A DNA stretch of 53,829 bases from an uncultured bacterium (GTDB lineage: Bacteria; Bacillota_I; Bacilli_A; RFN20; CAG-826). Positions 1,997 to 46,736 of the stretch are shown here, piece by piece (position 1 is the stretch's first letter; every line of letters starts with the position of its first letter). Location of the stretch: NCBI GenBank assembly GCA_949297275.1, contig CASFQR010000004.1:1-53829 (forward strand), given 5' to 3'. The position numbers were made by a program, and so were the translations under genes. The notes under the pieces are model-generated. The model saw only the letters and a program-made list of their open reading frames with translations, ran no database searches and had not been told where the DNA came from.

Positions 1997-2185
1997 ATAA
2001 TCTCCTTAATCAAAATCCGATATGTAGATATTATAACCAATTTTAATTTTAAAAGCAATTAATAATTATATATAAAGTATATAAAATTTATCCTTACAAA
2101 TCAATTAAAATTGTTTGATATAATAATTTTATTTACAGTTTTTTTTATTAAATAACCGAAAGAAAAAAATAAAAATATTTTAAAA

Positions 2186-5100
2186 TTACGATATTTTTAT
2201 AAGAAAATCCAAGACTGCGTCGGTTTTATCAAAAACCGAACGGATATTTTCAAAACTTGCGCAAACGGGAATGTTCGTATTCAGTCTTATGTTTTTGGCG
2301 TCGCTTACCGCTTCTATTATTTTTCGGTCTTTGAAAACATCGGCTGAAACAAAATACAGTTCGGCACGGTTTTCGTCTATAACTATTCTGCTTATGTTTT
2401 TTGACGAAGCGAGATTTTTAATAAGACATATTTTTAAAAGGTTTACCGTTGCGGCTTTGGGTTTTCCGTACAGTTCGGTAAGTTCGAGAATTAGATTTTC
2501 AAGTTCTTCTTTATTCGATAACGAAGCTGCCTTTTTGTAATATTTGAGTTTTTCCGATTCGTTTTCGATATACGAAGAGTCAATATAAGCGTCCTGATTT
2601 ACGAATAACTCGGTATCGGTTTCTTTTACTTCCTCTCTTCCTTCCGCATAGCTTACGGCTTCTGCAAGAAGTTTGCAATAAAGTTCGTAACCTACTTCGG
2701 CAATATGGCCGCTTTGTTCCCTTCCCAAAAGTTCCCCCGCTCCTCTAATTTCCAAATCCGCCATTGCGATTTTCATACCGCTTCCCAGTTCCGTATTCTG
2801 AACAAGGGCTTTCAGTCTGCTCTCTCCTTCCTTGGTAAGGGGTTTTCCTTTTTCAACTGTAAAATAGGCTTTTGCAAGTCTTGAAGACCTTCCGACTCTT
2901 CCTCTCAGCTGATAAAGAGAGTTAAGTCCCAACCTGTCGGCGTCTATTACAATAAGGGTATTTGCGTCGGGTAAATCTATTCCGTTTTCTATAATTGTGG
3001 TGGTAACAAGGATATTCCCTTCTTTTTCGTAAAATGCGTTGATTCTCGTATCGAGTTCTTCCGGGGAAAGTCTGCCGTGGGTTACGATTATTTTGGCGTT
3101 TTTAACAAGTTCCGAAATATGACGGGCAAAATCTTCTATACCTTTTACACGGTTATAGAGAATAAATACCTGTCCTTCTCTTGCAATTTCTCTTTCTATT
3201 GCGTCCTTTACGAGAGCGTCGGAATATTCGGTGACATAGGTATCGATAGGCAATCTGTTTTTGGGGGAAGTTTCGAGAATACTTATATCCCTTATACCGC
3301 AAAGCGCCATATTCAAAGTTCTGGGTATAGGGGTTGCCGACATAGTAAGAACATTCAGGTCGTTTTTAAGTTCTTTTATTTTTTCTTTATGTTCGACGCC
3401 GAACCTTTGTTCTTCGTCGAGAACAAGAAGTCCCAAATCTTTAAACACAACATCGGGTGACAGCATTCTGTGGGTTGCGACAAGCACATCGATTGAGCCG
3501 TTTTCGAGATTTTTAAGGGTTTTTTTGATTTCCGCAGGCTTTTGCAGTCTTGTAAGCATTGCGGCTTTCACTCCGAATTTTTCCATTCTCTTTATAACGG
3601 TATTATAATGCTGCTTGGCAAGTATGGTTGTAGGCGAAAGTATTGCAGCCTGCTTAGAAGAAGTTACGGTTTTGAAAACCGCCCTTAAAGCAACTTCGGT
3701 TTTACCGTACCCTACATCTCCGCAAATGAGCCTGTCCATAACCTTGCCTTTTTCCATATCCGATTTAACATCTTCTATTGCCTGCAACTGGTCGGGCGTT
3801 TCGGTATATTCGAAATCGTCTTCAAACTGTTTTTGAAGAAAATCGTCCCCGGGATAGATAAAGCCTTTCGCCTTTTCTCTTTTTGCGTAAAGTTCCAAAA
3901 GATTGACAGCCATTTTTTTGACGCTTTCCTTAACTCTTTCCTTCACCTTCTCAAAACTTTTTGTTCCGATTTTCGAAAGTGCGGGAGCGGTATCGGCGCC
4001 CGAATAACGGCTGAGTCTCGTCATCTGGTCTACAGGAATATATAAAACATCGCCGCCGTAATATTCGACGGTTATATAATCTCTTTTTATTCCGTCGGTT
4101 ATCATATCGCAAAAGCCTGTGCATTTTCCTATACCGTGAACTTCGTGAACTACGAAATCGCCTATTTTCGGCATTTCCGAAAGTCCTGTTTTCCGTCTTG
4201 CGATACTCTGTTTTTTTCTGACAAGTTCGCTTTTGCCTATTACTGCGATTTTTGCGATAGGGTCTATGAATCCTTTTTCTACCGAAGCGTCGGAACATAC
4301 GGAATTCGAAAATCCCTCTTTTTTAATATTTTCAAAAGATTGAAAAGACAAGCTTATTCCTTCTTTTAGAAATGCGCTTTGAGAAGACAGCGCTCTGTCT
4401 TTATCGCCGAAACAGAGAACAATATCGTAGCCGTCGTTTTGAAATTTCAAAATATCTTTAACCAGCAGATTGTAATCCAAAAAATACGAAGGAACGGACG
4501 GTGAATTTAATTTTAATATATTTTTGTCTTCGGTCTCGGTAGCGAAATCGATAACTGAAAAATCTTTTAATTTTTTTTCTATGCAAGAAAAATCGATAAC
4601 TGCTTCGCTGTGTTCCTTTAAAGTTTCGCCCGACAAAAAAAGTTCTTTTGTTCTTTGACTGTTTTCCCTGTCGCAGACGATACCCTTTTCCTTAATGGAT
4701 TTAAAACCGTCGAAAAAGACGGGTGCCGACTTTAAATAGGAAAATATATCGGTTTTTGTTTCGGAAAAAGGCAAAGCCCATAAAAGAGAAGTATCGTAAT
4801 TTTTGTTTTTCAGTTTTTCTATGATTTCCGAAACTATATCTTCCGCTCTTTGACGGGCTTCTCTTGTCATTGTTTTGTTCTGTAAAATAAAAGCGTCGCT
4901 GAGTTTTTTTATGTTTATACTTGAATAGTCGTATTCGTATGCAGGCGAAATTTTTGCCGAATTCAAAGACTGGATAGAAAGTCCGCTTTCCGGACTGAAA
5001 GAACGGATTTTTTCCACAGTATCGTCTTCGAAGACAATTCTTACCGGTAAAGCCTGTCCCAAAGGGTAAATATCCACTATACCGCCCCGAACCGAAAATG

Positions 5101-5575
5101 TTCCTATTTCCCTTTCCCCTCTCTTGTATCCGAGTTTGACGAGTTTTGCTATAAGCTCGTCGACGCTTAAATTTTCGGAAAGGAAAAATTCTTCATAGTT
5201 CAAAAAATATTCCGGTCTTTCGTAATACTGTTTAAGCGCCTCTACGCTTATAACAGCTTTTTTAAGTCCGCAAGCTATATCGGTCAGAGCTTCCACTCTT
5301 TTGGAAATTCTCTCTAAGCCTAAATCTTCTTTATAAATAAGGCTGTCCGCCCGTGAAGTAAGTACCCTTACATCTGTACCGTAACTTCTTATAAGTTCGG
5401 CGTAGTATTCCGCTTCCGCATCGTCTCTTGTGACGAACAAAAACTCGTCAAGTAAACTCAGCGCAAGACATTTGAGTCCCGTACTTAAACCGAAAACGGC
5501 TGTGGTTTTATTGCCAAGCCGCTCGAAAAGTTCTTTAAGTATTCCGTTTTTTGCGATATCGGAAATTTTCTTCAA
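2186..5575 (-). CDS. mfd: Transcription-repair coupling factor Mfd (1129 aa, TTG start)
   Basis: CarD/RNAP-interaction segment DFVVHEVHGIGKC. Helicase Walker A GDVGYGKTEVA, DEEQRFG box, and motif VI QLRGRVGRS. pth-mfd synteny. Confidence 0.95.
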   Translation of the reverse strand: MKKISDIAKNGILKELFERLGNKTTAVFGLSTGLKCLALSLLDEFLFVTRDDAEAEYYAELIRSYGTDVRVLTSRADSLIYKEDLGLERISKRVEALTDIACGLKKAVISVEALKQYYERPEYFLNYEEFFLSENLSVDELIAKLVKLGYKRGEREIGTFSVRGGIVDIYPLGQALPVRIVFEDDTVEKIRSFSPESGLSIQSLNSAKISPAYEYDYSSINIKKLSDAFILQNKTMTREARQRAEDIVSEIIEKLKNKNYDTSLLWALPFSETKTDIFSYLKSAPVFFDGFKSIKEKGIVCDRENSQRTKELFLSGETLKEHSEAVIDFSCIEKKLKDFSVIDFATETEDKNILKLNSPSVPSYFLDYNLLVKDILKFQNDGYDIVLCFGDKDRALSSQSAFLKEGISLSFQSFENIKKEGFSNSVCSDASVEKGFIDPIAKIAVIGKSELVRKKQSIARRKTGLSEMPKIGDFVVHEVHGIGKCTGFCDMITDGIKRDYITVEYYGGDVLYIPVDQMTRLSRYSGADTAPALSKIGTKSFEKVKERVKESVKKMAVNLLELYAKREKAKGFIYPGDDFLQKQFEDDFEYTETPDQLQAIEDVKSDMEKGKVMDRLICGDVGYGKTEVALRAVFKTVTSSKQAAILSPTTILAKQHYNTVIKRMEKFGVKAAMLTRLQKPAEIKKTLKNLENGSIDVLVATHRMLSPDVVFKDLGLLVLDEEQRFGVEHKEKIKELKNDLNVLTMSATPIPRTLNMALCGIRDISILETSPKNRLPIDTYVTEYSDALVKDAIEREIAREGQVFILYNRVKGIEDFARHISELVKNAKIIVTHGRLSPEELDTRINAFYEKEGNILVTTTIIENGIDLPDANTLIVIDADRLGLNSLYQLRGRVGRSSRLAKAYFTVEKGKPLTKEGESRLKALVQNTELGSGMKIAMADLEIRGAGELLGREQSGHIAEVGYELYCKLLAEAVSYAEGREEVKETDTELFVNQDAYIDSSYIENESEKLKYYKKAASLSNKEELENLILELTELYGKPKAATVNLLKICLIKNLASSKNISRIVIDENRAELYFVSADVFKDRKIIEAVSDAKNIRLNTNIPVCASFENIRSVFDKTDAVLDFLIKIS

Positions 5576-38889: not shown

Positions 38890-39816
38890 GTGATTAAAGT
38901 ACCAGCTTCTTTGTTTAAATATTTAATGGATAAGGGTGATAAAAAATATCTTAAAAGTCATCAAACTTTTGGTGTATATAATACGACAAGAAATCTAAGT
39001 TATTTAGGTGCGGACCTCTATTCAAGAAGCTATTATTTAGATATCTATTCACCAGTTGATAATTTTAATGGCATTACGATTTTTAATATTCATGGCGGTG
39101 GTTATTTTCAAGGCGATAAAGATTATAGTGAAATTTATTGTTCCTATTTTGTAAATCAAGGCTTTCAAGTTATTAATCTTAATTATCCTTTGATTGATAA
39201 TTTGATGGATATTGATATACGCAATCAGATTTATGCTTTAGTAATGGCTGTTAATTTTATCTATGATAATCGCCATAAATATCATGTTGATATTGATAAA
39301 TTATGTTTGATGGGCGATTCCGCTGGCGGCCATCTAGCGTTCATGGTTGGTCTCATTTTTTTGAATCCTCAAATGGCTAAATATTATCAATTACCTTATT
39401 TAGCCCCAATTACTTTTAAAGCCATTCATTTATCTTCTTCAATGTATGATTATGTTGGATTAAGAAAATTAGCCAACAAATATTTATATCGCGGTGGAAT
39501 TAGTAAAATATTTTCAAAACACTTTAATGATTCTGAATATTTAAAAATGAACTCACCTAAAACTTATGTTGATGATTTAAATATCTTTTTACCACCTTTA
39601 TTTATCATTACTTCAATTAATGATTTTTTTAAAGAAGAAACAATTAAATTACATCTTGATTTAAATAAGAGAAACATCGAACATTTTTATCATTATGAAA
39701 AAAGCGGCGATAAAAGATTAGGGCACATTTATAATCACTTTAATTTTGATTTAACCGAAGTGCAAAACATCAATTTAGTCATTACTGAATTTTTCATTAA
39801 GAAATGTTCTCAATAA
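38890..39816 (+). CDS. Alpha/beta hydrolase, HSL-type esterase/lipase
   Basis: Oxyanion motif HGGGYFQGD and nucleophile elbow GDSAGGHLA. The start is uncertain (GTG at 38890 or ATG at 38923). Confidence 0.75.
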   Translation: MIKVPASLFKYLMDKGDKKYLKSHQTFGVYNTTRNLSYLGADLYSRSYYLDIYSPVDNFNGITIFNIHGGGYFQGDKDYSEIYCSYFVNQGFQVINLNYPLIDNLMDIDIRNQIYALVMAVNFIYDNRHKYHVDIDKLCLMGDSAGGHLAFMVGLIFLNPQMAKYYQLPYLAPITFKAIHLSSSMYDYVGLRKLANKYLYRGGISKIFSKHFNDSEYLKMNSPKTYVDDLNIFLPPLFIITSINDFFKEETIKLHLDLNKRNIEHFYHYEKSGDKRLGHIYNHFNFDLTEVQNINLVITEFFIKKCSQ

Positions 39817-39836
39817 AGGAATTCACGCAGGAATAA

Positions 39837-39864
39837 TTGAAGAAATTATAAATTAATTTATAAT
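39837..39864 (+). promoter_or_regulatory. Promoter-like element overlapping a perfect 20-bp palindrome, 7 nt upstream of the ADC-AguA ATG
   Basis: TTGAAG, 16-nt spacer, TATAAT (39859-39864). ATTATAAATT|AATTTATAAT at 39845-39864 is a perfect palindrome. No SD precedes the ATG at 39872. Confidence 0.4.
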
Positions 39865-39871
39865 AAGACCA

Positions 39872-42523
39872 ATGAAAAAGTCGCAACATAGAACCCCTTA
39901 TTTCGATGCCTTAAAAAAATATGTCTTAGATGATGTATCACCCTTTGATGTTCCAGGCCATCATATGGGCAGTGTTCCTAATAAATTAAAATCATTTTTA
40001 GGTGAAATGGTTTTTAAGGCGGATGTTAATGCTCCTATTGGGCTAGATAATTTAGCGTCTCCTACGGGTGTGTTATTAGAAGCTTCGCGATTAATGGCTA
40101 ACTTCGCAAAAGCTGATCGCGCCTATTTTTTAATCAACGGCACGACTAGTGGCATTATCGCGATGATTATGACATCTTGTAAGGCTAACGATAAAATCAT
40201 TTTACCGCGAAATGTCCATAAATCGATTATTAGCGCTTTGGTCCTTAGCGGTGCGACACCAATTTATATCATGCCAAAACTCGATACCGAAATTGAGATT
40301 GCTAATCAACCATCGGTCGATGAATATATTAAAGCAATGAATCGCTATCCATCTGCGAAGGCTATTTTTGTTATTAATCCTACTTATTTTGGCTCAGTAA
40401 TAGATTTAAAAACTTTAGTCACTGAAGCCCATAAACGCGGGATGGCGGTTTTAGTTGATGAAGCGCATGGTGCGCATTATTACTTTAATAAAAATGGTCC
40501 CATCAGTGCGATGGAAGCAGGCGCGGATATATCGAGTGTCTCCTTCCATAAAACAGCGGGTTCATTAACGCAGTCGAGTGTTTTGTTATTAAACGAAGGA
40601 ATTTTCTTTAAAGAAGATATTCAAAAAACCTTAAATATTCTTAACACCACCTCGCCATCGACTCTCTTATTAGCGAGCCTAGATACCGCGCGTGAATTTG
40701 TGGCAATTCATGGACAAGAATATATGAATCGCATTTTAGAATATTCAATGTATGCGCGGGGGCAAATCAATAAAATCAAAGGGTTTAAAACAATCGACCG
40801 CGAACATTTTATTAAATATGGTTCCTTTGATTATGATTTAACCAAACTAGTTATTGCCATTGATCATTTAGATATTAATGGTTTTGAATTATATAAAATC
40901 TTAAAGAACGAATATAACATTCAAGTGGAATTAGCAGAAACTTATGTGGTGATGTGCGTGTTATCTATCGGCACTAAAAAGAAACACCTCCTAGCGTTAA
41001 TTAAGGCCTTAAAAGATATATCTAAAAAGCATTATAAGAAGAGCAATGCGCGCCTTGAACACACTTTTGGTATTGATTTTCCTTATATTTTGATGCGTCC
41101 GCGTTTAGCTTATCACGCGGCGGGCAAAAAAGCGCCATTAGAAGAAGCAATTAATGAAGTGAGTAAAGAGCAATTAATGATTTATCCTCCGGGTATTCCC
41201 TTAATCGTGCCAGGCGAAGTCTTTACTAAAGAACTTGTTGATCGCATTTTATCTTATAAAAAAAGTAAATGTACGATCCTTTCACAATATAAAAGGGCTG
41301 ATTATGTTTCGATTATTGATAAAGATAAATGGCCACAATTTCATTTATATCGTCGCCGCTTAGATGATTATTTATTAAAGAAAATTACTACCCCGCGCGG
41401 CGATGATTATTTAATGCCGTTTGAAGGTGATAAACATCAAGGCACCATCATCTTTTTACCATATCGAAAAGATACATGGCGGAATAATGCTTTGCCTGCT
41501 CGTGAAGCTTATAAAAATGTCATCATGGCAATTAAAAACTATGAGAAGGTTTATGTCGGTATTGATCCTAGTATCTATAACAAAGTTATTGCTGAATATG
41601 AAAATATCGATAATGTCATTCCTTTAAAAATTAAATATGACGATGCTTGGGCGCGCGATACCTCGCCTATTTTTGTAAAAAATAAGCAAGGCAAATTGCG
41701 TTGTGTTGATTTTAGATTTAATGCTTGGGGCGGCGATGTTGATGGTTTATATTCTAATTACAAAGAAGATAATTTATTAAAGAAAACAATCGCTAAATAT
41801 TTTAATGTTGATCGTTATTATTTAGATGATTTTATCCTTGAAGGCGGGAGCATCCATGTCGATGGTCAAGGAACATGTTTAGTGACGGAAGCATGTTTAT
41901 TATCAGCGGGGCGAAATCCTACCTTAACTAAACAAGAAATAGAAGAAACTTTAAAAATTTATCTTAATGTTTCAAAAGTCATTTGGCTTAAGCATGGCAT
42001 TTATTTAGATGAAACGAATGAACATATTGATAATATTGCCTGTTTTATTCGTCCAGGAGTAATTGCGTTAGGGTGGTGCCTAGATAAAGATGATCCACAA
42101 TATGCTTATTCGGCCTCTTGTTATAACATTTTAAAAAAGGAAACGGATGCTTTGGGGAATCCCTTTAAAATCGTCAAGATCCCTTTACCAGCCCCGATGT
42201 ATATGTCAAAAGAAGAAGCTTTTGGTATTAAAAATGGTAGATATGGGGCGTTAGAACGCCTCGAAGGCAATCGCCTAGCTGCAAGTTATATCAATTTTTA
42301 CCAAGGGGAAAAATTTGTCATTATGCCAAAATTTAATGTTCCAGAAGATGATATTGCTTATAAAAAGATTAAAAAACAATATCCTGATAAAGATGTGATT
42401 CAAATTGATAGCCGAGAAATTCTTTTAGGCGGCGGCAATATTCATTGCATTACCATGCAAGTACCTTTTAAGGAGGAAATTAACGATGAAAGTCTCTGTG
42501 GCAATCACCCAAATGAAAATTAG
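39872..42523 (+). CDS. speA-aguA: Fusion protein: Orn/Lys/Arg-decarboxylase-family (SpeA-type arginine decarboxylase) N-terminal domain plus agmatine deiminase C-terminal domain (883 aa)
   Basis: N-terminal half: FDVPGHHMG and the PLP-lysine motif SFHKTAGSLTQSS. From about aa 505: MPFEGDKHQGTIIFLPYRKDTWR, WARDTSPIF, LEGGSIHVDGQGTCLVTE, NEHIDN, and catalytic GGGNIHCITMQ. One uninterrupted frame. Confidence 0.9.
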   Translation: MKKSQHRTPYFDALKKYVLDDVSPFDVPGHHMGSVPNKLKSFLGEMVFKADVNAPIGLDNLASPTGVLLEASRLMANFAKADRAYFLINGTTSGIIAMIMTSCKANDKIILPRNVHKSIISALVLSGATPIYIMPKLDTEIEIANQPSVDEYIKAMNRYPSAKAIFVINPTYFGSVIDLKTLVTEAHKRGMAVLVDEAHGAHYYFNKNGPISAMEAGADISSVSFHKTAGSLTQSSVLLLNEGIFFKEDIQKTLNILNTTSPSTLLLASLDTAREFVAIHGQEYMNRILEYSMYARGQINKIKGFKTIDREHFIKYGSFDYDLTKLVIAIDHLDINGFELYKILKNEYNIQVELAETYVVMCVLSIGTKKKHLLALIKALKDISKKHYKKSNARLEHTFGIDFPYILMRPRLAYHAAGKKAPLEEAINEVSKEQLMIYPPGIPLIVPGEVFTKELVDRILSYKKSKCTILSQYKRADYVSIIDKDKWPQFHLYRRRLDDYLLKKITTPRGDDYLMPFEGDKHQGTIIFLPYRKDTWRNNALPAREAYKNVIMAIKNYEKVYVGIDPSIYNKVIAEYENIDNVIPLKIKYDDAWARDTSPIFVKNKQGKLRCVDFRFNAWGGDVDGLYSNYKEDNLLKKTIAKYFNVDRYYLDDFILEGGSIHVDGQGTCLVTEACLLSAGRNPTLTKQEIEETLKIYLNVSKVIWLKHGIYLDETNEHIDNIACFIRPGVIALGWCLDKDDPQYAYSASCYNILKKETDALGNPFKIVKIPLPAPMYMSKEEAFGIKNGRYGALERLEGNRLAASYINFYQGEKFVIMPKFNVPEDDIAYKKIKKQYPDKDVIQIDSREILLGGGNIHCITMQVPFKEEINDESLCGNHPNEN

Positions 42524-43346
42524 CGGAAATAAAGAAGAGAATATTTTAAAGGCTGATAAATTAATTGCTGAAGCAAAAAACGCAGGCGCGCAGATCATTC
42601 TCTTACAAGAACTATTTTCCGATTTATATTTTTGTCAAATCGAAGATTATGATAATTTTAATAAAGCTGAAACATTTAATGACTCTTCACTAATTAAACA
42701 TTTCCAAGAAGTAGCTAAAAAGCATCAAGTTGTATTACCAATCTCATTTTTTGAAAAGAGTGGGGTGAATTATTTTAATTCTTTAGCAATGATTGACGCG
42801 GATGGAAAGGTTTTAGGTTTATATCGTAAAATGCATATTCCAACTGGGCAATGTTATGAAGAAAAATTTTATTTTACTCCTGGTGATTTAGGTTATAAGG
42901 TTTTTCAAACTAAATATGGCAAAATTGGAGTAGGAATTTGTTGGGATCAATGGTTTCCGGAAGTCGCGAGAATTTTAACTTTAAAAGGGGCGGAATTGAT
43001 TGTTTATCCAACAGCAATTGGAAGCGAGCCTGTATTAAAGCGCGATTCGATGATTCATTGGCAAAATACGATGGCGGGGCATGCATCTGCTAATTTAATA
43101 CCCGTCTTAGCGAGCAATCGTGTCGGTAAAGAAATTGCTAAAGATTCTTCGATGGTGTTTGGCGGTTATTCTTTTATTGCTAATCAGCATGGGGAGGTTG
43201 TTGCCCAAATGAACCGTGAAGAAGAAGGCTATCGCCTTTATCAATTTGATTTAGCAGCAATTAATCAAGAAAGAATATCGTGGGGAGTATTTCGCGATCG
43301 CCGAATCGATTCCTATCATGATTTATTAAAAAATGGCGAAGAATAA
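42486..43346 (+). CDS. aguB: N-carbamoylputrescine amidase (nitrilase superfamily)
   Basis: LQELF (Glu), YRKMHIP (Lys) and ICWDQWFPE (Cys) form the catalytic triad context. 38-nt overlap with the fusion gene. Confidence 0.9.
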   Translation: MKVSVAITQMKISGNKEENILKADKLIAEAKNAGAQIILLQELFSDLYFCQIEDYDNFNKAETFNDSSLIKHFQEVAKKHQVVLPISFFEKSGVNYFNSLAMIDADGKVLGLYRKMHIPTGQCYEEKFYFTPGDLGYKVFQTKYGKIGVGICWDQWFPEVARILTLKGAELIVYPTAIGSEPVLKRDSMIHWQNTMAGHASANLIPVLASNRVGKEIAKDSSMVFGGYSFIANQHGEVVAQMNREEEGYRLYQFDLAAINQERISWGVFRDRRIDSYHDLLKNGEE

Positions 43347-44205
43347 ACAAGTTGCTTTAGCAATTCAAGGCGGTGGTGTCCGCGGCGCTTTTTCTAGTGG
43401 TGTCATCGATGTCTTTATCGAAGAAGGAATTTATTTTCCTTATATCTTAGGTGTTTCTAGCGGGGTATTAAATGCTTGCAATTATGTTTCTAAAGATATT
43501 AAAAGATCTTATATTGTTTGTACAAAATATATGAACGACGAACGCTTTTTTGGTAAAAAAGCCCGCAAAAGTAGTGGATCTTTTTTCAATTTTGAATTTT
43601 TAATGAATGATTTAAACCGCGAATTACATTTTTCGGATGATGTTTTTGATCATAGTAAACAAGAGATTGTTGCGATTGCTACGAATTTAGATAGTGGAGA
43701 ATATGAACCATTTTATAAAAGTCAAATGGGAGCGGAACGCTTTTTAAAAGAAGCTTGTGTTGCTAGTGCTTCTCTACCCCTTTTATCCAAAAAAATCGTT
43801 ATTGATGGTAAAGAATATCTCGATGGCGGCATCAAAACCCCCTTACCAGTCGAACAAGTTTTTAATGATGGTTATGACAAAGTAGTTATTATCCTTTCGC
43901 GGCCTCTTGGCAAAAGAAAAGAGAAGAATTTACGCGATAAATTAATTGCTAAGTCGCCATTATTTTATGGTAAGAAATACCAAAATATTCGCAAGGCGAT
44001 TCGCGAAGAATATTTATCCTATAATCGCGAGCTTAATTATATTGAATCTCTTCCTAAAGACATAGCATACATTATCGCGCCTAAAACTACCTACGATGTT
44101 AAAGTGACAGAAAAAGATATTTCAAAAATTGAAAAATTATATTTAGATGGAAGAAATTACGCCTTGGAACATTTAGAGGAGATTAAGAAATTTATCAATG
44201 AATAA
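43333..44205 (+). CDS. Patatin-like phospholipase
   Basis: QGGGVRGAF oxyanion motif, GVSSG nucleophile, and DGG(I) aspartate motif. Confidence 0.85.
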   Translation: MAKNKQVALAIQGGGVRGAFSSGVIDVFIEEGIYFPYILGVSSGVLNACNYVSKDIKRSYIVCTKYMNDERFFGKKARKSSGSFFNFEFLMNDLNRELHFSDDVFDHSKQEIVAIATNLDSGEYEPFYKSQMGAERFLKEACVASASLPLLSKKIVIDGKEYLDGGIKTPLPVEQVFNDGYDKVVIILSRPLGKRKEKNLRDKLIAKSPLFYGKKYQNIRKAIREEYLSYNRELNYIESLPKDIAYIIAPKTTYDVKVTEKDISKIEKLYLDGRNYALEHLEEIKKFINE

Positions 44206-45118
44206 AAACGAGAAGAAAAGACAGAAACTCAAAAAGAAAGCACCTTTAAAATTTAAAGAATTCAAAGTTAAAGATAAATGCTTTTTACTTGAATTTTTAA
44301 TTAGTAAATATCCATCTTTATCACGCAATAACGTAAAGCATTTACTGTCGGGTCGCTATGTCTCGGTAGGTGGGGCAATTGTTACCCAGTTCAATTTAGA
44401 ACTAAATAAAGAAGATGTCGTTGTCGTTTTTGATAGTCCACTTCGTCAATCTAAAAAACCATCGCGCCTACCAATCATTTATGAAGACGATGAAATTATT
44501 GTTATTGATAAACCAGCCGGCTTATTAAGCGTTGATAATGATAAAGAAAAAAGGGCAACGGCCTTTCGGTTAGTAAATGATTATCTTCAGGCCAAAGATA
44601 AACATAGTCGCATTTATGTCACCCATCGCCTCGACGAAGATACTTCGGGTATTTTGTTATTTTCCAAAAATAATAAAATCAAAGAAGCTTTACAAAAAGA
44701 TTGGTCTACTTTAGTTAAAAAAAGAGGCTATTATGCTTTAGTTGAAGGAACCTTTAAAGAAAAAAGTGGTACCTTAATCAATTACTTAAAAGAAAATAAA
44801 TTAAACCTTATGTATATTAGTGATGACAAAGTGCATGGCAAAAAATGCATCACAAATTATCAAGTAATTCGTGAAAATGAAGCCTATTCCTTACTCGATG
44901 TTAATATTGAAACGGGTCGTAAAAATCAAATTCGCGTGCAACTTGGACATCTTAATCATTATGTGGTTGGCGATGATAAATATGGTAATCCCTCTAATCC
45001 CATTAATCGTTTGGGGTTACATGCTTATGAATTAGATGTTATTCATCCTTTTTCCCAACGCTTAATGAAATTTCGCTCGAAAATGCCAAAAGAATTTTTA
45101 TCGTTATTTAAAAAATAA
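44198..45118 (+). CDS. RluA-family 23S rRNA/tRNA pseudouridine synthase with an S4 domain
   Basis: HRLDEDTSGILLFSKN catalytic Asp motif, GRKNQIRVQL, and an N-terminal S4-like region. Confidence 0.88.
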   Translation: MNKNEKKRQKLKKKAPLKFKEFKVKDKCFLLEFLISKYPSLSRNNVKHLLSGRYVSVGGAIVTQFNLELNKEDVVVVFDSPLRQSKKPSRLPIIYEDDEIIVIDKPAGLLSVDNDKEKRATAFRLVNDYLQAKDKHSRIYVTHRLDEDTSGILLFSKNNKIKEALQKDWSTLVKKRGYYALVEGTFKEKSGTLINYLKENKLNLMYISDDKVHGKKCITNYQVIRENEAYSLLDVNIETGRKNQIRVQLGHLNHYVVGDDKYGNPSNPINRLGLHAYELDVIHPFSQRLMKFRSKMPKEFLSLFKK

Positions 45119-45203: not shown

Positions 45204-46736
45204 ATGGTTTTAGAGTGGCTAAAAAAATTAAAAGAAGCAGTCTTATCTACCTTACCGGTAGTAATGATTGTTTTAATTATTTTTCTTGTTGACCGCTTTT
45301 TATTAGATGCGACCCTAACTAACGATGACATTATTTTATTTGCGATTTCAGCCGTTTTATTAACAATCGGAATGTGGTTATTTAATGTTGGGGCAGAAGC
45401 GAGCACGGCTAAGCTCGGAGAATATGTTGGGGCGACCTTAACGAAGAAAAAAAGTATCGTTTTGCTGGTAATTATTGTCTTTTTAGTCGGTGTATTAATC
45501 ACCGTGGCTGAACCAGATTTATCAGCTTTAGCTAATCAAGTTCCGATTAATAATTATGTTTTAATTATCACAATTGGTGTAGGGGTAGGTGCCTTCTTAG
45601 TCGTTGGAGTTTTACGCATTATTTTTCAAAAAAGTTTAAAAGTTTGGTTATTAGCTTTTTACGCTTTAATGTTTGCTTTTGCGTGTCTACTTGATGAACA
45701 ATATTTGCCAATTTCATTAGATAGTGGCGGCGTTACGACTGGCCCAATAACCGTACCATTTATTTTAGCCCTTGGCATTGGGGTTGCGACTAGTCGCGGT
45801 GGTAAAAAAACTAATTCCGATTCTTTTGGTTTGGTAGCTTTTGCCTCGATTGGCCCCATTTTAATGGTGATGATTTTATCGTTAATTTTACAACACAATA
45901 ATGTAAACTTAGTCACTTCTAGCAGTGAAACTATGAGTGGTATCTTAGGTCCTTTAGGCCATGCCTTTGCGGATTCTTCTTTAAATGTTTTAATCTCTTT
46001 ATCTCCAATTGCTATCTTCTTTATTATCTTCAATTTTATTTTTATTAAATTGCCAAAGAAAACCTTGTTAAAGATTCTAGTGGCTTTAGTTTATACTTAT
46101 GTTGGCTTGGTGTTATTTTTAGGGGCAGTGGAAGCCGGTTTTATGAATATGGGGACCAAATTAGGTAATATCCTCGGCTTAAATGAAAATAATTTCTGGA
46201 TTTTAATTTTAGTGGGAGTCTTTTTAGGCATTGCGGCTATTTTTGCTGAACCGGCTGTTCATATCTTAACCTCGGAAATTGAAACTGTTAGTGATGGTAC
46301 AATTCATAAAGGTTTAGTTTTAATTGCTTTAGCCCTCGGTAATGGTTTAGCAATCACCTTAGCGATTTTACGCATTAAATATCAATTCCCACTTCTATAT
46401 TATATTATTCCTGGCTACATCCTCGCGTTTATTTTGGCTTTTATTGTTCCTGATATTTATAATGGTATCGCTTTTGATAGTGGTGGAGTTGTTAGTGGCC
46501 CAATGAATTCAACATTCCTTATACCATTTGCTACTGGTGTAGCGACTGCTTTAGGTATTAGTGGCGCAGACATCATGAAATATGCTTTTGGCATGATTGC
46601 GCTGGTTGCTATGATGCCTTTAATTACTTTACAAACAGTCGGGTTAATTGCTATCTTTAGGAAGAAATTCATTTATCATAAAGCACGTGAAAGCATTCGT
46701 GATGAATTCGATTTACAAGTTATTCATTTTGAGTAG
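45204..46736 (+). CDS. DUF1538-type polytopic membrane protein (putative transporter) with internal duplication
   Basis: About 12 TM segments. The two halves each carry DSGGV(T/V)(T/S)GP...(F/I)...A(L/T)G(I/V)(G)VA (nt ~45720-45790 and ~46476-46546). Followed by two PII-like genes. Confidence 0.6.
   Translation: MVLEWLKKLKEAVLSTLPVVMIVLIIFLVDRFLLDATLTNDDIILFAISAVLLTIGMWLFNVGAEASTAKLGEYVGATLTKKKSIVLLVIIVFLVGVLITVAEPDLSALANQVPINNYVLIITIGVGVGAFLVVGVLRIIFQKSLKVWLLAFYALMFAFACLLDEQYLPISLDSGGVTTGPITVPFILALGIGVATSRGGKKTNSDSFGLVAFASIGPILMVMILSLILQHNNVNLVTSSSETMSGILGPLGHAFADSSLNVLISLSPIAIFFIIFNFIFIKLPKKTLLKILVALVYTYVGLVLFLGAVEAGFMNMGTKLGNILGLNENNFWILILVGVFLGIAAIFAEPAVHILTSEIETVSDGTIHKGLVLIALALGNGLAITLAILRIKYQFPLLYYIIPGYILAFILAFIVPDIYNGIAFDSGGVVSGPMNSTFLIPFATGVATALGISGADIMKYAFGMIALVAMMPLITLQTVGLIAIFRKKFIYHKARESIRDEFDLQVIHFE

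Follow-up and report, generated by a model that had tools for sequence, protein, structure and literature searches.

Putrescine can be made from arginine by the successive action of an arginine decarboxylase (ADC), an agmatine deiminase (AguA, or AIH) and an N-carbamoylputrescine amidohydrolase (AguB, or NCPAH). In the ADC/AIH/NCPAH route of plants, Pseudomonas, Streptococcus pneumoniae and Bacteroides these three reactions are carried out by separate polypeptides, and the ADC is mostly of another fold than the one considered here. We examined a stretch of 53,829 nucleotides from an uncultured bacterium of the Bacilli (contig CASFQR010000004.1 of assembly GCA_949297275.1; the whole stretch is hereafter called the window), in which the same reactions are predicted to be encoded by two genes: a fused speA::aguA gene, which places steps one and two on one chain, and an overlapping aguB. 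The constituent enzymes are textbook ones, and together they follow the ADC-AIH-NCPAH route already known from plants, Pseudomonas and the pneumococcus. No account of an ADC-AIH fusion was found in the full-text literature searched (subscription journals lie mostly outside it), and a literature search for RFN20, the window's lineage, together with putrescine returned nothing relevant.

The closest known counterparts of the N-terminal half are the stand-alone ADCs of "ancestral form" (Bacillus subtilis SpeA; ADCs from P. simplex and from B. cihuensis; SP_0916 of S. pneumoniae; PMC8503589, PMC7531197), which likewise consist of OKR_DC_1 and OKR_DC_1_C and are about 490 aa long. Compared by family and description, they share with the fused protein the lack of a wing or REC domain, the S-x-H-K lysine, the occurrence in Bacilli and the polyamine gene context of orthologues, whereas the fused protein runs without a stop into an agmatine deiminase. 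The short ancestral-form family is mixed, including ADCs, ornithine decarboxylases (ODCs), lysine decarboxylases (LDCs) and, as a paralogue outside polyamine synthesis, YaaO (Li et al. 2021, PMC8503589), and the enzymes of this form from Bacilli that were assayed in the same study had ADC activity only. YaaO serves the modification of elongation factor P (EF-P) and not polyamine synthesis, and its signature is a neighbouring tmk gene (PMC8503589). Ancestral-form decarboxylases are also strongly inhibited by their own preferred product (PMC8503589).

We consider it highly probable that the bifunctional enzyme and AguB together form a biosynthetic route from arginine to putrescine. The N-terminal half, a pyridoxal 5'-phosphate (PLP) decarboxylase of the B. 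subtilis SpeA type, would convert L-arginine to agmatine and CO2; the C-terminal AguA/AIH half would convert agmatine to N-carbamoylputrescine and ammonia via a thiouronium intermediate on Cys859; and the aguB product, translated independently from the overlapping gene, would convert N-carbamoylputrescine to putrescine, CO2 and ammonia.

Architecture of the fused gene

According to the open reading frame (ORF) listing, the window holds a single plus-strand ORF of 883 aa (P0001) at 39872..42523. An earlier note on this DNA had described it as one frame joining a SpeA-type decarboxylase to an agmatine deiminase, a description borne out by the ORF itself, by Pfam and by the NCBIfam model TIGR03380. 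The features of the locus are:

39872..42523, + strand: fused speA::aguA gene (P0001, 883 aa), from the ORF, Pfam, NCBIfam, homologues and bridging contigs
39872..41380, + strand: decarboxylase half, residues 1-503, a wing-less "ancestral form" Orn/Lys/Arg decarboxylase of the aspartate aminotransferase (AAT) fold
41333..41380, + strand: junction, residues 488-503, two short helices that are the decarboxylase's native C-terminal tail, with no inserted linker
41381..42475, + strand: agmatine deiminase half, residues 504-868, from TIGR03380, structure alignments and the conserved triad
42470..42476, + strand: Shine-Dalgarno sequence AAGGAGG for aguB, 9 nt 5' of the aguB ATG and inside the fused ORF, read from the sequence
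42476..42523, + strand: 15-residue C-terminal tail (869-883) and stop codon, disordered and poorly conserved
42486..43346, + strand: aguB, N-carbamoylputrescine amidase, 286 aa (P0002), from the 5H8I alignment and catalytic motifs

Two Pfam domains exceed their gathering thresholds in the first half of P0001: OKR_DC_1 over residues 8-371 (E 1.3e-70; 238.7 bits, cut-off 27) and OKR_DC_1_C over residues 395-462 (33.5 bits, cut-off 24.2). The OKR_DC_1 match covers profile positions 1-416, with position 1 aligned to residue 8; no N-terminal wing or REC domain is present, and stand-alone decarboxylase relatives (489-514 aa) align to residues 2-491. The assignment to the wing-less ancestral form follows the definition of PMC8503589 (no wing or REC domain, a decarboxylase of about 480-490 aa). 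The PLP lysine is K227, in the S-x-H-K motif SFHK (nt 40550-40552), and H30, D196, H199, S224, H226 and K227 are invariant in an alignment of 50 fused homologues (A1).

The second half matches PAD_porph at residues 515-865 (Pfam, E 9.4e-106) and the aguA equivalog TIGR03380 with 440.7 bits against a cut-off of 381.8, residues 506-865 spanning profile positions 1-356 of 357. Its full length can be aligned with the structures 2EWO, 1VKP/3H7C, 6NIB and 2JER (E 1e-85 to 1e-94). With the triad and the guanidinium-binding Asp94 of the Medicago enzyme (MtAIH) taken as given in its paper, D596, H718, D720 and C859 are the counterparts of Asp94, His224, Asp226 and Cys366; C859 lies in GGGNIHCITMQ (nt 42446-42448), and the deiminase catalytic residues are kept in at least 90% of the 50 aligned homologues. 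Both of the motifs that the earlier note had quoted (SFHK with K227, GGGNIHCITMQ with C859) are present, and conserved columns and structure alignments agree with it that both halves have intact catalytic residues; both are putatively active. The labels given to the fused proteins in databases are "agmatine deiminase" (NCBI) and "aminotransferase class I/II-fold enzyme".

One member of the family that has diverged, P0124 (863 aa, an ENA singleton from a 12.5-kb contig), has a well-conserved decarboxylase half and a deiminase half that is in frame and lacks the catalytic Cys, His and Asp as well as the DDAWARD motif. This second half may have become a pseudo-enzyme, comparable to the inactive arginase homologue in the fusion from Fusobacterium discussed below.

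The aguB ORF overlaps the 3' end of the fused gene by 38 nt, and the coordinates confirm the adjacency and overlap that the earlier note had reported. P0002 scores 407.4 bits with the aguB equivalog TIGR03381, just under the cut-off of 410.25; it aligns end to end with the Medicago N-carbamoylputrescine amidohydrolase 5H8I (E 1.2e-88), and the motifs of its catalytic Glu (QELF), Lys (YRKMHIP) and Cys (ICWDQWFPE) agree fully or almost fully with those of 5H8I. Together the three predicted activities make up a complete arginine-to-putrescine route in two genes, as the earlier note had claimed.

The fusion is real. Over 39800-43400, contigs from other public runs differ from the window by substitutions only, with zero insertions or deletions, and the junction at 41,300-41,420 is spanned without an indel by four contigs, which come from four other runs belonging to two studies; this answers the indel check proposed in the earlier note:

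X2, 10.6 kb: bridging contig, 40034-43400
X3, 2.9 kb: bridging contig, 39800-41728
X4, 945 nt: bridging contig, 41339-42283
X5, 245 nt: bridging contig from a different study (a bird metagenome), 41187-41431

Among the 24 listed contig differences in the fused gene, 18 are synonymous and 6 non-synonymous, the synonymous ones lying on both sides of the junction, and in aguB the ratio is 12 synonymous to 2 non-synonymous; this pattern of substitution shows purifying selection on the locus. We put at negligible the chance that the fusion comes from faulty sequencing or assembly masking a stop codon or a frameshift between two genes: contigs of four other runs, one study being a different one, bridge the junction, the in-frame synonymous pattern carries on across it, all 78 complete homologous ORFs in other genomes are uninterrupted, and no point in support of an error was found.

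The junction differs from what the earlier note had supposed, namely a linker of about 25 aa at nt 41,340-41,390 (residues ~490-507). This stretch is neither separate nor flexible, being the native C-terminal helix of the decarboxylase; it is also found in unfused relatives, abuts the native deiminase N-terminus and is modelled as ordered helix. In the AlphaFold2 model the helices span residues 488-492 and 494-503, with a predicted local distance difference test score (pLDDT) of 88-94 over residues 481-520; the whole P0001 model has a mean pLDDT of 88.4 and a predicted template modelling score (pTM) of 0.84. These values argue for a defined arrangement of the two halves in the predicted structure and not for beads on a string. 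Decarboxylases of the AAT fold occur as obligate dimers, and bacterial AIHs as dimers or tetramers. The decarboxylase tail (…IDxxxW…Y…DY…) continues directly into the deiminase N-terminus (TTPRxDGYxxPFEG), nothing is added at the junction in an alignment with the closest unfused proteins (from genomes G378 and G209, described below), and the junction (conservation 0.64-0.65) is as conserved as the remainder of the fused protein. At the other end of P0001, residues 869-883 have a pLDDT below 50 and an alignment gap fraction of 0.55-0.66, and in the other frame they correspond to the aguB ribosome-binding site and the first aguB codons. Most relatives are 867-876 aa long and end 10-15 residues earlier than P0001, and the 38-nt overlap is therefore a local peculiarity of the window's genus.

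Relatives of the fused gene

The fused family is species-rich but narrow. The domain architecture OKR_DC_1 plus PAD_porph (PF01276 and PF04371), for which the earlier note had proposed a database search, occurs in more than 120 protein clusters at 64-77% identity, including every one of the best 120 (868-900 aa). When one genome per species was scanned, 80 loci were found with a fused gene at 51-92% identity (at least 80 species); in every one of the 78 loci uncut by a contig end the ORF is open over about 870 aa with aguB directly downstream; aguB lies directly 3' of the fused gene in 78/80. Record titles name uncultured Bacilli or Bacillota (metagenome-assembled genomes) from rumen, chicken, horse and human gut, and digesters, and include Candidatus Enteromonas and Candidatus Alloenteromonas. 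By contrast with this number of species, only two fused representatives of full length are found in a library clustered at the 50% identity level. The window's class was sampled evenly: of 399 genomes, 19 have the fused ORF, 18 of them from several genera of the window's own family (f1) and one from family f16. One more fused genome, from family f4, belongs to the same order. In f1 a stand-alone decarboxylase is present in two other genera, and many genomes have none.

Two side observations concern these records. The locus L100 (G022:C1, 3746-5717) and the contig G012:C8, from the same family, carry aguA-aguB without an OKR_DC_1 decarboxylase, which suggests that such relatives scavenge agmatine or use another type of ADC. 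Eight "cleanbin" records (L065, L069, L073, L077, L078, L080, L081 and L084) carry the Bacilli-type gene at 53-56% identity under titles such as Escherichia coli, Bacteroides uniformis, Faecalibacterium prausnitzii, Alistipes communis and Prevotella, and these labels look wrong.

The closest stand-alone decarboxylases (54-56% identity) come from G378 and G209, both of family f33, where separate aguA and aguB genes follow:

L101 (G378:C12), 2010-5512: unfused speA, aguA and aguB, three consecutive genes
L102 (G209:C44), 2019-5467: unfused speA, aguA and aguB, three consecutive genes

In both, speA and aguA already overlap in different frames (by 29 nt in G378 and 26 nt in G209), and a single frame change therefore suffices to fuse them. 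Most likely the fusion arose in a speA-aguA-aguB operon with its first two genes already overlapping, and the polarity would then be one of fusion rather than fission. On the decarboxylase tree, 23 fused sequences form a clade with a support of 98 in the Shimodaira-Hasegawa-like approximate likelihood ratio test (SH-aLRT).

A decarboxylase of the alanine-racemase fold (PF02784/PF00278) is also found fused to PAD_porph, in six clusters of database sequences (P0198 and P0325-P0329; 1050-1061 aa, 55-100% identity). Stand-alone relatives of its decarboxylase half are about 691 aa long, and one of them is named arginine decarboxylase by the Joint Genome Institute (JGI). The decarboxylase halves of the two fusions are non-homologous, and this fusion is therefore independent and convergent; a second independent joining of a decarboxylase to AguA fits selection for coupling the two steps. 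Other architectures seen among the database proteins are an NNMT/PNMT-type methyltransferase before an OKR_DC_1 decarboxylase (P0143, 734 aa), a 5-formyltetrahydrofolate cyclo-ligase fused before AguA (P0175, 556 aa), and an unassigned 400-aa N-terminal region before AguA (P0236, 754 aa).

Comparative gene context points to L-arginine as the probable substrate of the decarboxylase half. In 8 of 11 relatives the gene immediately 3' of the stand-alone orthologue (40-52% identity, same class) belongs to the Arginase family (speB), and speB is found within about 1.5 kb of a stand-alone decarboxylase in 14 of 20 sampled loci, from twelve families. One sister locus reads speD-speA-speE-speB, followed by a saccharopine-dehydrogenase-like gene, and another reads metK-speA-speB; no Arginase-family gene was found in the fused-gene genomes checked. 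A maximum-likelihood (ML) tree built from the decarboxylase domain unites all aguA-linked sequences in one clade (SH-aLRT 95), which is nested among sequences linked to speB. Because every context of the orthologous group needs agmatine, arginine decarboxylase is the parsimonious call. The earlier note had held that the fusion by itself fixes the specificity as arginine; the specificity is backed by the context of the orthologues (speB, aguA/aguB), but the fusion alone does not settle it. The window genome (G000) has a single OKR_DC_1 gene, and an identity as YaaO was rejected: the fused gene is not next to tmk, its downstream gene is aguB, and it is the sole OKR_DC_1 gene in the genome.

Paralogues at 25-27% identity stand apart on the decarboxylase tree by a very long branch. 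Three of these OKR_DC_1 paralogues (L121, L122 and L123, in G166, G357 and G421; 443-465 aa) lie directly 3' of a radical-SAM/4Fe-4S gene (460-495 aa). They were discarded as a YaaO anchor, as they stand beside the radical-SAM gene and not tmk and belong to another subfamily; paralogue and radical-SAM gene make up an uncharacterised conserved pair, present in 3/3 genomes.

Role of the locus and reason for the fusion

In the window genome (1.04 Mb in 38 contigs, 85% complete), searches by family found no agmatinase, no member of the ornithine and putrescine carbamoyltransferase (OTC/PTC) family (PF00185), no AA_permease_2, no S-adenosylmethionine decarboxylase (AdoMetDC) and no convincing spermidine synthase; nor did they find a decarboxylase of the alanine-racemase fold (CANSDC, for example), CASDH above cut-off or a DHS/SpeY-like protein. 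AdoMetDC was found in 0/11 further fused genomes (93-100% complete), and PF02784 is absent from 10 of these 11. A search for potA (TIGR01187) gave best hits below cut-off and identified no polyamine importer; the potA candidates were rejected as MalK-like sugar-transporter ATPases adjoining glycoside hydrolases. From the gene content, the best reading of the locus is putrescine biosynthesis. It suggests that putrescine is the end-product polyamine, made from imported arginine, and the locus is probably the only polyamine source in this genome of about 1 Mb. The lack of a PF00185 hit in the 85%-complete genome, where aguB is present instead, rules out an ATP-yielding agmatine deiminase pathway, and acid resistance of the AdiA/AdiC type is unlikely in view of the absent gene families.

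The biosynthetic reading has to be weighed against two others that concern what the protein does. A catabolic or protective pathway, serving acid resistance or yielding two ammonia per arginine for nitrogen or pH, with putrescine as an exported by-product, accords with the established chemistry of the route (one proton used, two NH3 and two CO2 freed), with gut and rumen habitats rich in arginine and acid, and with genomes in which no use of putrescine for higher polyamines is seen; we nevertheless regard it as unlikely, since the decarboxylase is short and lacks the wing domain typical of acid-inducible enzymes (PMC8503589), since the AdiC-type AA_permease_2, putrescine carbamoyltransferase and OTCace members were not found, and since the sister orthologues sit in biosynthetic operons (speD-speA-speE-speB or metK-speA-speB). 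On the same grounds, and with no agmatinase in the 85%-complete genome, the earlier suggestion that the locus could equally serve acid resistance does not stand. The other possibility, that the decarboxylase half is an ODC, an LDC or a YaaO-like enzyme or that one half is dead, so that the protein is no two-step enzyme, we judge to be very improbable. All catalytic residues of both halves are kept in P0001 and in at least 90% of 50 homologues, the orthologues are always found in context with agmatine-consuming enzymes, the fused gene does not adjoin tmk, unlike YaaO, and no other ADC that could feed the deiminase was found with the families searched. Several points do count against the biosynthetic, arginine-specific reading and the proposed polarity. 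The decarboxylase family itself includes ornithine, lysine and YaaO enzymes (PMC8503589), one member in Fusobacterium, an ODC, has an inactive homologue of arginase as its fusion partner (PMC8503589), which is a precedent for a dead half, and the singleton P0124 has lost its deiminase Cys, His and Asp. The proposed specificity draws on gene context, with a tree whose leaves include no biochemically characterised SpeA. The fused sequence of family f16 groups weakly with the unfused pair (SH-aLRT 82), and the deiminase tree has a clade of fused and unfused forms (SH-aLRT 99) that is not resolved inside; in an approximately unbiased (AU) test on a reduced 24-row set (LG+G4), monophyly of the fused forms was not rejected (p-AU 0.38), which is no proof of a single origin. 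The absences in the window genome are provisional because it is 85% complete. Finally, fused relatives carry a 372-aa ORF with an unexplained partial Spermine_synth match of 24-39 bits (L096, 377-1495 in G001:C4, with homologues in G002, G009, G018, G020, G021 and G039). These ORFs (356-377 aa) match profile positions 20-100 only, have GLGLG in place of the usual glycine-rich motif and occur in genomes without AdoMetDC, and tblastn found no homologue of the L096 ORF in the window genome; the product probably belongs to the methyltransferase-fold proteins and not to the spermidine synthases.

Why the two enzymes are joined is a separate matter from the function of the protein. Because ancestral-form decarboxylases are strongly inhibited by their preferred product, a deiminase held by the PLP site could relieve that inhibition, and local removal of agmatine is the benefit that we favour, if tentatively. 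Still more doubtful is the fuller proposal of a dedicated arginine-to-N-carbamoylputrescine enzyme, in which agmatine would be handed on directly or locally, escaping product inhibition and kept from the cytosol, as a solution reached twice, with the two-gene locus forming the whole polyamine metabolism and ending at putrescine. Against both stands the view that fusion brings no kinetic benefit or channelling: a frame change in overlapping, coupled genes would have been harmless, or would merely have fixed 1:1 expression, while agmatine equilibrates with the cytosol. We give this an even chance, about as likely as relief of inhibition, as a view of the reason for the fusion and not of the protein's function. 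One indel is enough in relatives whose genes overlap by 26-29 nt, no linker or new interface element was added, the fused clade is narrow (two representatives at 50% identity), and unfused speA-aguA-aguB and speA-speB operons work in sister lineages. A neutral origin sits less well with a fused form that is kept down to 51% identity in at least 80 species, with a second, non-homologous decarboxylase that was fused to AguA independently, and with a junction that is conserved and modelled as ordered (pTM 0.84); the strong product inhibition of this enzyme class also makes a benefit plausible.

Flanking sequence and comparison with known systems

Three further features flank the locus:

39837..39864, + strand: promoter-like TTGAAG-16 nt-TATAAT, matching 10/12 consensus positions, suggestive only
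43333-44205, + strand: patatin-like phospholipase, overlapping aguB by 14 nt
44198-45118, + strand: RluA-family pseudouridine synthase, overlapping the patatin-like gene by 8 nt

In the promoter-like site, 7 nt separate the end of the -10 box (TATAAT) from the start codon of the fused gene, and this interval contains no Shine-Dalgarno sequence. Many related loci likewise lack a Shine-Dalgarno sequence and have a hexamer resembling a -10 box 6-10 nt 5' of the ATG; this arrangement would fit a leaderless mRNA. The site is the best of its region, where promoter-like sites are not above shuffle expectation. Inside it lies a perfect 20-bp palindrome (39845-39864, ATTATAAATTAATTTATAAT), found only in the window and, altered, in its closest relative (L016). 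Downstream, the patatin-like gene occurs in the flanks of 33/80 related loci and the RluA-family gene in those of 49/80; both are probably co-transcribed with the fused gene and aguB and lie outside the pathway. Farther on, a single 510-aa ORF (45204-46736) has two DUF1538 halves. Their matches are to UmpA and UmpB, which are subunits of a Na,Li,K/H+ antiporter, and each scores far under its cut-off; the ORF may encode a fused two-subunit transporter.

The ADC-AIH protein adds a pair not described before, steps one and two of the agmatine route, to the known fusions of polyamine enzymes, and the fused partner allows a context-based call of specificity in a decarboxylase family that is hard to annotate. 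It is also a natural test case for the relation of fusion to product inhibition and agmatine channelling, for which the unfused sister operons and the convergent fusion of the other fold are the controls. The distribution of the gene suggests that widespread uncultured Bacilli of gut and rumen make putrescine and no higher polyamine, which bears on the question of luminal putrescine producers.

Among described fusions, the nearest is that of Fusobacterium (783 aa, PMC8503589; here P0162, 782 aa), which has a decarboxylase of the same family and a C-terminal partner from arginine or agmatine metabolism; there, however, an ancestral-form ODC is joined to an arginase homologue predicted to be inactive through loss of its metal ligands, whereas here the partner is a pentein with its catalytic residues kept. 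Fusions of aguA with aguB (PMC10407285; PF04371+PF00795 proteins of 636-651 aa) and of SpeD with SpeE (Green et al. 2011, as cited in PMC6356823) likewise join consecutive polyamine enzymes, but at different steps. The alanine-racemase-fold decarboxylase-AguA fusion has the same domain order and the same presumed reactions, with a non-homologous decarboxylase; it is rare (six clusters) and uncharacterised. In the catabolic pathway of Enterococcus faecalis (AguA, putrescine carbamoyltransferase, carbamate kinase and an agmatine/putrescine antiporter) the deiminase is homologous (2JER, E 1e-85) and the second step is an ATP-yielding phosphorolysis, whereas in the present locus, where no carbamoyltransferase-family gene or antiporter was found, their place is filled by aguB.

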